Assembly (NCBI GenBank): GCA_963704165.1
Contig: CAVPHD010000003.1
Coordinates: 480,001 to 544,000, forward strand
Direction: 5' to 3'
From: an uncultured delta proteobacterium
GTDB taxonomy: Bacteria; Myxococcota_A; UBA9160; SZUA-336
DNA: 64,000 nucleotides
The notes beneath the pieces were generated by a model, which was given only the letters and a program-made list of their open reading frames with translations, made no database searches and was not told where the DNA came from. Shown here piece after piece: positions 7,034-10,500 of the stretch (its first letter is position 1; each line of letters begins with the position of its first letter). The position numbers and the translations under genes are program-made.

Positions 7034-7537
7034 TCAGGGGTGGTCGAAGATCGGGCCGCCGCGGTGCGCCTGGTGCACGATCGCCTCGCGTGGGAACTCC
7101 GCTTCGACCCTCTCTCTCAGTCGAACCGTGATCTTTTCGACCGTCGCGGACGGCGAGCCATTCTCGTAGTCGGAGACGGAGAACCAGAGCGCGCGTCCGT
7201 CCTCGCTCACTTCGAGCGAGAGATCGATCGGCAGCGAGAAGCTCTGCTTCCTGGACCACAATCCCAGGAGACGACGCGGCGGCAGCTTGCGACGGCTCAG
7301 GATCCGCGCGGACTCGATCCCGCCCCAGACCTCGTCACCGGATCTCATGCCCACGGCCTTGGCGACGTCCGCCGCCACGAACTCGGCGCGCCCGAGCGCA
7401 TCGGCCGAGAATCGATCCGATCCGGAGGAAACCTCGACGCGCGTCTCGGCGGTGTAGGTCCAGCGTGGAATCGGAGTGCAAGCGCTGGCAGCGAGAAGGA
7501 GCACCGCCACCCACAGCAGGCCTCGACGCTCGGTCAC
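7034..7537 (-). CDS. Lipoprotein, candidate immunity protein of the RHS toxin (167 aa)
   Basis: GTG start overlaps the RHS TGA (GTGA); signal TERRGLLWVAVLLLAASAC with lipobox; no recognisable family. Confidence 0.65.
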   Translation of the reverse strand: MTERRGLLWVAVLLLAASACTPIPRWTYTAETRVEVSSGSDRFSADALGRAEFVAADVAKAVGMRSGDEVWGGIESARILSRRKLPPRRLLGLWSRKQSFSLPIDLSLEVSEDGRALWFSVSDYENGSPSATVEKITVRLRERVEAEFPREAIVHQAHRGGPIFDHP

Positions 7538-10500
7538 GGCTGGCCCGTCATCGAGCGCCAGGCGATCCGCGCGCCGAACGCAGCGGTGCCCACCACGCGA
7601 TAGGCCTGACCGTAGGGCCCCAACTTGAACGGGTCGCTCCATGCGATCCGAATCCACGTGCGATCGGCTGCGTTGTCACAGCCCCCAGCGCACAATCCGT
7701 CGTGCTCGAATCCCGCCTCGTCGAGCACACTCTCGAGCCTCTCATTGCTCGTCTGTCCACGACCCCAGAACACTCCATTCTGCAGCCCGTAGCGGGGCAC
7801 CAGAGTTCCTCTGATCAGGCGCCCAGCCGCCTCACCCATACCGGACACGTCGCCGTTCACGGATCGATCGATCAGCATTCCGAGGCTCATGAAAGGATGG
7901 ATGACGAGCTGCGAGTAGATCGCCAGTGTAGCCGCCTGGAGATCCGTCAGAATGACTTTCCCCAAGCTGGCGACGACTCGCGGCAGCTTCCGAATGCCGC
8001 CGGGCGCCGGGACACGGGTGACTCCGACCGCGGGCCCGGGCGCGAAGCCGAAGATGAACGGAGTTTCGGCGCTCGGCTCGGGCGTCGTCTGCAGCACGCC
8101 GGACTGAAGCGTCGCCGTGCTCCAAGCCCCGTAGCTCACGCCGTTCCAGATCAACATTCCCGTCGGATCGGTGGCGCTCGTCGGCCGGTTCTGCACGTAG
8201 GAGTACGGATTCAGACCGGGTGCGTCGAAGTCCTGCACCACTTCATCCGGCGAGATGAACCGGTTCCACCTCGCGTCGTAGAAGCGCGCTCCGTAGTCGT
8301 AGAGCCCGCCGGCCTCGTCGTCCTGCGGCTGACCGGTGAATCGGTGTGCGACCGAATAGGCTCCCGCGTGCGCGATCGACTCGCCGAACGGCGCGTAGTC
8401 GCGGGTCTCGACGACGATACCGTCACGATTCACCGACGCTCGGATCGCGCCGAGGTGGTCGGTGAGATGCGCGAGGATCGGCTCCGCGTGGCGTCCGAAT
8501 CTTCCGGGGCCGGATGTCGGTCCCGGTGTGACGGGTGTCGTCGCCAGGCTCGCGACGCGCACGCCGCCGATCGAGAAGTGCTTGTTCGCGCGCTGCGCGC
8601 CGACGTCGTACTCGAAGTCGCCACCGACCGAGACGATCGAGGTCGCAGCACCGCTCGGTCCGGTCGACGTCAGCGTCAGGTCGCCGAAGACGTCGTAGCC
8701 GTAGGTCGAGCGCCGATGGCGGTGGAGCTTGCCCTGCGTGTTCCAGATCAACGTGTCGCGACCGTATCCCGAGCCGAAGTCGATCTGCGCGACCTCGCCG
8801 CCGAGCGTGGAGCCGATCGCCTCCCACTGCTCGCCCGCCTCGACGAACTCCGTCAGGACGCGCGGCTTGCTCGCGTGGAAGTAGCCCCAGGTGCGGTGGT
8901 CACCGCCGAAGCTCTCGGGACGACTGCTCACCTGCCGGCGCAGATTCCCGAGCGCGTCGTAGCGGTACGTCCAGGTGACGGGCTCTGCGGCGTCGCGCGC
9001 CTTCTCCCAGGAGCCGGTCGCGGTCACGAGGCGAGAGAGCCCGTCGTACCCATAGCTGCGATTCACGGGCTCGGCGCCGATCACACCGCTCTGTGTGACC
9101 AGGCGGCCGAGGCCGTCGAAGACGAGGTCGAGATCGATCGGCGCGCTCGACGGCAGATTCGAAGGCGTCGTCGCCCGGCAACGCTGCAGGTCGCCCACCC
9201 CGTGCCAGAGCGCGGTCAGGACCGCGACGAAGTCGTAGGGATCGCAGGATCCGCCACCGTCGACGTCGCAGAGATCCTCGCGAACGAGCGGGTCGTCGCC
9301 AAAGTCGTGCATCAGGATCGCGAAGCCATCCGCGAGCGTGACTCTTCCGCTTCCGTCGACGTCGCCGCACTGGCAGCCGTCCCCGATTCCGTCGGGGCCA
9401 CTGGCGTCGCCGAGCCCGCCGCGATCGAGCTGATCCGGATCGTAGGCGTTGGGGCAGACGTCGCTCGACGTCGCGACCCGATCCGCGTCCGGGTCGTCCG
9501 AGAGCAGGTTGCCCGGCGTCGCGCGGACACGAGAGAGCCGCGCGCTCGTCGGATCGTAGCCGTAGGTCTGCACCGCGAGCGCCGCGCCGCCCGCGCGCTG
9601 GCCGATCTCGAGCGACGTGATGCGACCGAGCGCGTCGTAGTCGGCGTCGCGGACGACCACGCCCGTGAATGCCGGATTCGCGGGGTCGGCGCGGATCTCG
9701 CGCAGACGCACGCCATCGTAGGCGAACTCGAACGCGTCGCCGTCGGGGAAGACCCGGCGCTTCACGCGATCGAGCGCGTCGTACTCCCAGCTGGATTCGA
9801 ACTCGAGACCGTCCGTGCGCTGGACGACGGAGCTCCGGCGGCCGGCCTCGTCGTACCCGTACAGGTAGCTCGTCGACGAGGGCTCGGCGGCCATCACGCC
9901 GATCAGCTGTCCGAAGGACGAGAGCGACGCGTCGGTCCCGTAGACGAAGCTCGCGTTCGCGACGCCCATTCCAGCCGGAGAGAAGCTCTTCGCGCGGAGC
10001 CGCCCGAGCGGATCGTAGCTGCGCCGTTCGCTGCGGGCCTCGCTCGTCCCGGCGTTCTGAACCCGCGCGACGAGCCGTCCCGCGTCGTCGTGGTCGAAGC
10101 GCCAGATGCCCGAATCCGGGTCGTCGATCCGAACGCGTCGCCCGAGCGTGTCCCAGAAGATCTCGGTGACGTGGTCCTGCGCCGCGCAGGCCGGCCCCAT
10201 CTCGAGCGACGCGCAGAGCGACGGATCGTTCGCGATCGGATCTCGGACTTCGTAGAGCCGGTCGGCGGCGTCGTACTTCGCCGAGACGACGTGGGGATCG
10301 GACAGGGTCACGGCATCCGGATGGCTCGCGACCCGGACCCACCGTCCCAATCCGTCGCTCATGCGCTCCGTTCGCTCCACGCGATCGCCCGCGGACGGCG
10401 GTCCGAAGTACGTCTCCTCGATCGTCGTCCACGGCGCGTAGCTCCAAGCGTGTCGGGTGGTCGCATCCGGGTCGAGGACGAGCTTCGGCCGTCCCAGGGC

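Follow-up and report, generated by a model that had tools for sequence, protein, structure and literature searches.

A predicted divergent phospholipase A2-like toxin tip on an Rhs carrier of an uncultured deltaproteobacterium, and its candidate immunity lipoprotein

Here we describe the tip of a large Rhs protein, and the small lipoprotein gene that overlaps the end of the Rhs gene, in a 64,000-nucleotide stretch of DNA from an uncultured delta proteobacterium (GCA_963704165.1, contig CAVPHD010000003.1, positions 480,001 to 544,000; this whole stretch is hereafter the window, with position 1 as its first letter). We consider it probable that the Rhs tip is a toxin of phospholipase A2 (PLA2) fold acting on the membrane phospholipids of rival bacteria, and that the overlapping-gene lipoprotein neutralises it in the producer. 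Seen directly were the architecture of the carrier, the exchange of tips between orthologous bodies, an invariant His-Asp pair in a family of about 120 tips, and a strict linkage of tip and lipoprotein gene. A preliminary description had proposed the divergent PLA2 tip, and contained neither the cognate lipoprotein gene, nor the size of the family, nor its distinction from the published Tox-PLA2.

The toxin tip, its family and its fold

The tip comprises the 207 residues after ...PTSATDPTG (8157..7537; minus strand, as are all features below unless stated). Its first 54 residues form a variable linker (7996..8157) with 24-54% identity to relatives, compared with 67-79% in the PLA2 core, and are followed by a predicted long helical hairpin (tip residues ~58-119; 7801..7986) that is a candidate membrane-engaging part. 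The catalytic core then presents RYGLQNGVFWG as the equivalent of the Ca-binding loop (7762..7794; family consensus PRYGxxGGxxWG), FEHD (7710..7699) with His152-Asp153 as equivalents of the catalytic His and Ca-binding Asp (7699..7704), AADR (7671..7660) with Asp165 as the equivalent of Asp99 (7663..7665), and, just ahead of the last helix, the family signature GPYGQAYR (7597..7620). The preliminary description had reported a tip of about 207 residues, and every motif it quoted was found where it had placed it, including FEHD at 7699-7710. The departures it pointed out, Asn for the loop Cys and HDGLC for HDxxY, were likewise borne out, and relative to the parvoviral YxGxG the window also has Q for Y and V-F for P-G, with FWGRG standing four residues after the QNGVF loop register. 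Its hydrophobic helices stood in part: long helices were indeed modelled, their hydrophobicity was only moderate (best 19-residue hydropathy 1.38), and no clear membrane anchor appeared among them. The tip holds two cysteines. A relaxed motif pattern matched one of the 32,514 six-frame open reading frames (ORFs) of the genome, the window ORF itself; this pattern was composed after the family had been viewed, and conservation is the independent test. Judged by codon comparison with 4 relatives over the last 110 codons (ratio of nonsynonymous to synonymous substitution rates, dN/dS, ~0.19-0.30), the PLA2 domain is under purifying selection.

The first relatives of the tip were two among the 1905 candidates of a protein search and six among 61 from genomes, one of these six being a weak match to the linker. 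With a 7-row profile, 122 representatives were found at E<=0.001 among 1.84 billion, the domain being C-terminal (within 15 residues of the end) in 116 of them. The Rhs core motif was present in 35 of the 38 matches of at least 330 residues (28 by pattern, 7 by eye), a count made after four profile matches (P0058, P0100, P0106 and P0113) had been removed as spurious repeat proteins. In an alignment that joined 7 locus sequences to 82 matches shorter than 400 residues (89 rows in all), His152 was kept in 88, Asp153 in all 89 and the loop Gly128 in 87, and the signature was similarly constant (G 89/89, G 85/89, Y 79/89). Distant members show the textbook YGxxxGPG...D...HDxxY...AD, and the window falls in a clade of 7 rows with HDxxCxxxC replacing HDxxY (support 99), according to a quick, unrooted tree of 96 columns that we use for this clade alone and not for origins. 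The two cysteines of HDxxCxxxC may be joined in a disulfide. Beside the tips, three small stand-alone canonical PLA2 proteins (P0112, P0127 and P0128; CGPG...CKRHDLRY) on short contigs carry the family's GxxGxxYR tail. Matches to the phage family phrog_10385 occurred in 10 of the 89 rows (best E 1e-18), and a phage link to the tip family is possible. A search for related loci in genome contigs gave a single match, a short one of 30 residues (L013).

Four partly independent lines point to PLA2, namely stepping-stone homologues, the family profile, a structural match and viral fold matches. As stepping stone, P0112 aligned to the tip family at 98% probability, exceeded the Pfam cut-off for Phospholip_A2_4 (33.2 bits vs 23.9), alone among the individually listed matches, and retrieved solved PLA2s, rice 2wg7 included. 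The family profile gave adeno-associated virus (AAV) VP1u and snake venom PLA2 as its best motif-level matches in the PDB (E 0.05-0.1); its top PDB row, a repeat-driven match in the hairpin, was set aside as spurious, and the 7-row profile returned noise alone. For the predicted structure of the tip (predicted local distance difference test, pLDDT, 95.2; predicted template modelling score, pTM, 0.86), rice PLA2 2wg7 ranked first of 48,161 chains (Z 7.2, root-mean-square deviation (rmsd) 2.9, 92 aligned residues; next 5.0), a second structural comparison placed three rice PLA2 entries first (Z 8.0, 7.6 and 7.3; next 4.8), and parvoviral VP1 made up most of the top 50 BFVD rows. No 1kp4-type PLA2 was among the top 50 structural rows for the tip, which does not exclude one. 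In the model, His152 and Asp153 lie on one predicted helix and Asp165 on the next, and in this respect the structural outcome that the preliminary description had named as refuting it did not arise. The tip also shows a feature of the secreted PLA2 (sPLA2) superfamily, its invariant His-Asp pair lying on a predicted helix that follows a Ca loop with Gly, and the predicted model shows the PLA2 fold at a Z of only 7-8. Because these middling sequence and structure scores agree on one superfamily, a divergent PLA2 fold is supported for the tip, as the preliminary description had read it.

The carrier and its linked lipoprotein gene

The tip ends an ORF of 2221 residues (7534..14199) that, by its domains, is a TcdB/TcaC-type Rhs polymorphic toxin, a carrier type defined in Zhang et al. 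2012 (PMC3482391). It opens with a putative Sec signal peptide read by eye (residues 1-23, ending VSYA before Q; 14131..14199), to which the N-termini of four relatives are alike by the same reading, and continues with an SpvB domain (residues 32-227; 13519..14106; Pfam E 1.2e-14), an integrin-like beta-propeller of FG-GAP repeats, a TcdB_toxin_midN domain (residues 716-855; 11635..12054; Pfam E 2.2e-18) and RHS/YD repeats, the FG-GAP and RHS repeats also being detected with Pfam. The Rhs-associated core, ending in DPxG, precedes the tip (8155..8397; NCBIfam TIGR03696 at residues 1935-2015, E 7e-18). Both core aspartates noted in the preliminary description are there, D1985 (8245-8247) in RFISPDE (8262..8242) and D2011 (8167-8169) in TDPTG (8172..8158). 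In Tse15, an aspartate pair cuts off the toxin (PMC11461821), and because D1985 and D2011 match that pair, with a spacing of 26 here vs 22 in Tse15, we place a likely, putative self-cleavage after M2015.

Comparison within the genus revealed three related Rhs bodies with 38-73% identity by segment (over the overlapping sequence) whose tips are unrelated (13-28%) and whose downstream genes are others, such that a variable tip, a conserved body and a tip-specific downstream gene are found together. The toxin tips of L070, L071 and L072, three unrelated ones on the same Rhs body, have different downstream genes; one of these tips looks like a CAAX-protease-type membrane protein.

The gene downstream of the window's tip encodes a putative immunity lipoprotein of 167 residues (7034..7537), its GTG start overlapping the toxin stop (GTGA), with a lipobox-like LLAASAC read by eye (Cys20 at 7478-7480). 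Among the 201 genomes of the class searched, 14 held 17 tips, and at 17 of 17 loci a lipoprotein-like gene of ~150-175 codons followed the tip, in two tandem copies in one genome (G019). Leave-out tests of a lipoprotein profile recovered 18 of 18 at 22-83 bits vs at most 8.1 for shuffles (200 each), and by this sequence measure the tip-linked lipoproteins form one family. The same profile had 27 matches in 20 of the 201 genomes, and the 9 outside its training set comprised one downstream of another PLA2 tip, which had escaped the search for toxins (G028), a tandem copy (G088), three orphans, two at contig edges, one garbled duplicate and one false match (L062, histidine-kinase-like), which was rejected. 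The orphan copies (L057, L058 and L059) stand beside unrelated genes in genomes where no PLA2 tip was found. Since kin are not independent, these linkage counts are no statistical test. Because related bodies with other tips have different downstream genes, the lipoprotein tracks the tip and not the body; with the tandem and orphan copies, this genomic pattern is that of an immunity gene.

The lipoprotein was modelled as an alpha/beta sandwich (pLDDT 91), for which the best fold matches were generic alpha/beta sandwiches (Z 9.4). It had no credible Pfam or NCBIfam match, and no named immunity protein was among its top 50 structural rows, which does not exclude one; an Atlas search gave unnamed clusters (0.86) and DUF3568 (0.80) as a lead only. 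The immunity profile also matched G000:C2:59380-60021 weakly (minus strand, E 0.008). Elsewhere in G000, three tandem Rhs core cassettes with dockerin-like repeats (G000:C1:687033-693684; L009-L011, L025) include, in the third, a second and more canonical PLA2 tip. In the assembly this tip is broken, by a frameshift beyond the core and by a stop codon in frame within the domain, and the gene behind it encodes an intact member of the window's lipoprotein family. With a garbled duplicate at the contig end (L069), an error of the assembly is possible.

Further features of the carrier and its flank were recorded. Most related carriers have, at the site corresponding to 8500..8550, an insertion made up of a hydrophobic helix, a basic cluster (RRR) and a second hydrophobic helix with an AxA-like end, resembling a membrane anchor and then a second signal peptide and occurring regardless of tip. 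One or two hydrophobic segments lay within the shell ahead of the core in 20 of the 25 carrier rows with enough sequence, some of which may be one and the same protein. The insertion before the Rhs core was present in L015, L016, L030, L032-L037 and L070-L072 and absent from the window's carrier and its closest relative (G007). It could serve as a membrane tether for the shell, and in the literature searched no title or abstract described it. The window's shell also holds an insert rich in Asp and Cys that resembles TSP3/dockerin modules (GDGCQCGDVDGSG...DVDGGGSCD; Rhs residues ~1570-1670, around 9190-9490), and a similar module ends a 1371-residue secreted protein at 152-4267 (TSP_3, weak match). 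Convergent with the immunity gene is a lipoprotein-like HExxH metalloprotease gene (HEFGHTLGLGH; 6208-7018, plus strand), syntenic in G007, G008 and G010 and probably a mere flank of the locus; a scan of 6800-7300 for promoters and terminators found none.

Proposed action and its alternatives

We propose that the signal peptide would route the carrier via Sec and then probably by type II secretion, a path suggested by the sequence and by the presence of GspD above cut-off in the window's genome, in which (84% complete) no match to TssC or VgrG was found. The Rhs shell would enclose the tip until D1985 and D2011 cut after DPTG-M, and the freed tip of ~206 residues would fold and dock on the membrane through its long helices. 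Ca2+ would then be bound by the loop backbone and Asp153, and His152, oriented by Asp165, would cleave acyl esters to give lysolipids. In the producer, the lipoprotein, anchored outside the cytoplasm, would bind and block incoming or self-made enzyme.

A number of observations weigh against this proposal. The window tip has no direct family match in Pfam, NCBIfam, PHROGs or PDB sequences, and a match to PF08398 at E<=0.1 was had by only 6 of the 89 rows of the family. The structural scores lie within a range called ambiguous for helical proteins, none of the viral fold matches reaches E 0.001, and the Atlas score of 0.88 for the tip is a lead only. Foldseek against the PDB, a check suggested in the preliminary description, was uninformative, giving mostly ferritins (template modelling score ~0.2) and no PLA2 among the matches listed. 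Within the family, HDxxY survives in just 29 of the 89 rows; at the Asp99 equivalent, 43 rows have Asp, 14 His, 10 Asn and 9 Gln. Where B19 has Y130 and Y157, the window shows Q and C. The signal peptide and lipobox were called by eye. Finally, two other Rhs genes of the genome with non-PLA2 tips also precede lipoprotein-like genes, and having such a neighbour is therefore no proof by itself that a toxin acts on membranes; these neighbours do not match the window's lipoprotein family.

These two tyrosines bear on whether the tip is an active enzyme: B19 PLA2 loses nearly all activity when changed to Y130A or Y157F (PMC3626588, Table 1). In plant sPLA2s, the Asp99 position can be filled by His, Asn or Ser and the third Ca ligand can be Leu, and no Tyr appears in their motif DACCxxHDxC (PMC6635587); because they accept comparable departures, those of the tip family need not kill the enzyme. 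The invariance of His-Asp, the presence of Asp165 and the low dN/dS speak for activity, and from its sequence the tip is likely a Ca-dependent PLA2 attacking rival bacterial membranes.

The same residues bear on the strongest alternative, which we regard as unlikely: that the domain has the PLA2 fold and another action, either disrupting membranes non-catalytically through its hairpin or cleaving a different acyl substrate or position. Lys49 venom homologues disrupt membranes non-catalytically. Such an action would fit the loss of both Tyr equivalents needed in the B19 enzyme, the variable third catalytic residue, HDxxCxxxC in place of HDxxY in the window's 7-row clade, and the conservation in the family of a 43-residue helix and a glycine-rich hairpin. 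It sits poorly with His and Asp being the most conserved residues (88/89 and 89/89), with Asp165 being kept in the window, with purifying selection on the domain, and with plant enzymes that are active despite comparable departures.

More improbable again is an active PLA2 directed mainly against eukaryotes (protists or fungi), with the lipoprotein serving as a chaperone or only as a guard against self-damage. The carrier shares SpvB and TcdB_midN with the B components of Tc toxins, the enzymes closest in fold come from eukaryotes and viruses, and no marker of a type VI secretion system (T6SS) was found, all of which would suit that target; tandem and orphan lipoproteins, and the exchange of tip plus partner, instead fit conflict of bacterium versus bacterium. 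A coincidental PLA2 likeness, with the tip being a helical His-Asp toxin of some other sort (an HD-type nuclease, for instance, or a pore former), is very improbable and already largely refuted, for although no direct match is significant and Foldseek on the PDB is uninformative, a graded sequence bridge leads to PF08398 and PF00068, three structure searches concur, and the partner's lipobox is unfitting for a cytoplasmic nuclease.

Relation to known systems and meaning

The prediction of PLA2-fold tips on Rhs proteins dates from 2012, under the name Tox-PLA2 and with a motif of the 1kp4 type (Streptomyces; DxC[ST], CxxHxxxYxN, C), and the table of PMC3482391 gives this entry type II export and lists no immunity protein. 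The general kind is thus already known, and the window's family is like Tox-PLA2 in having a PLA2-fold C-terminal toxin on RHS carriers with the same proposed lipid-attacking role. It differs in that DxC[ST] occurs in 1 of 89 rows and CxxHxxxYxN in 0 of 89, and in that its carriers are mostly SpvB/TcdB-type with a defined cognate lipoprotein family; the missing defining motif rules out membership in Tox-PLA2. In the literature searched, no title or abstract described the tip family, and the full architecture lists of the 2012 survey could include such proteins.

The parvoviral VP1u PLA2 (PF08398) shares with the tip the motif order of loop glycine, D-x5-HD and AD and the lack of a disulfide cage, it supplies the dominant viral fold matches, and some family members match PF08398. 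The window itself stays below the Pfam gathering cut-off and lacks YxGxG (QNGVF) and HDxxY (HDGLC), so we do not place it in PF08398; it differs further in having a GPxGQxYR helix and, on its N-terminal side, an additional helical hairpin, and in being a toxin tip whereas the parvoviral domain belongs to a capsid. Plant group XI sPLA2s (rice 2wg7, 2wg8 and 2wg9) are the best structural match (Z 7.2-8.0, rmsd 2.9, 92 residues) and are comparably permissive at the third catalytic residue and the third Ca ligand; identity is 10% and the tip is without the six disulfides and the cysteines of YGKYCG and DACCxxHDxC. Membership in group XI was rejected, as YGKYCGxxxxGC, DACCxxHDxC and the six disulfides are absent and CxxHD occurs in 1 of 89 rows.

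As to delivery, the TcdB/TcaC-type Rhs toxins of PMC3482391 likewise combine signal peptide, SpvB, beta-propeller, RHS, variable tip and downstream immunity gene; the difference is that no PLA2 tip is given for this route among the table rows consulted in that paper. Most relatives of the window's carrier also differ from these toxins by the internal hydrophobic hairpin. Tle families are T6SS phospholipase effectors with membrane-linked immunity. Together with Tox-Act1 (PMC12994826) they resemble the proposed pair in joining a periplasm-acting lipase to an envelope-located immunity protein, and differ in fold (alpha/beta hydrolase, PLD, NlpC/P60) and in delivery, with no T6SS marker here.

What the locus adds is a toxin family of ~120 members missed by current profile libraries, together with a family of candidate immunity proteins, none being listed in the published entry for PLA2 toxins. 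With only His-Asp fixed while other "essential" residues vary, the family puts to a natural test which residues PLA2 catalysis requires, and a protein inhibitor of the lipoprotein's fold would, if true, be new biochemistry. The tip family may also connect the plant and the parvoviral PLA2s by way of bacteria. Tentatively, and as something we think possible and rather doubtful, these parts might be one system: a bacterial PLA2 toxin clade bridging plant group XI and parvoviral PLA2, active with only His-Asp fixed, inhibited by alpha/beta lipoproteins of a new class, and carried on Sec-exported shells that in most relatives are tethered to the membrane by an internal helix-basic-helix "second signal".

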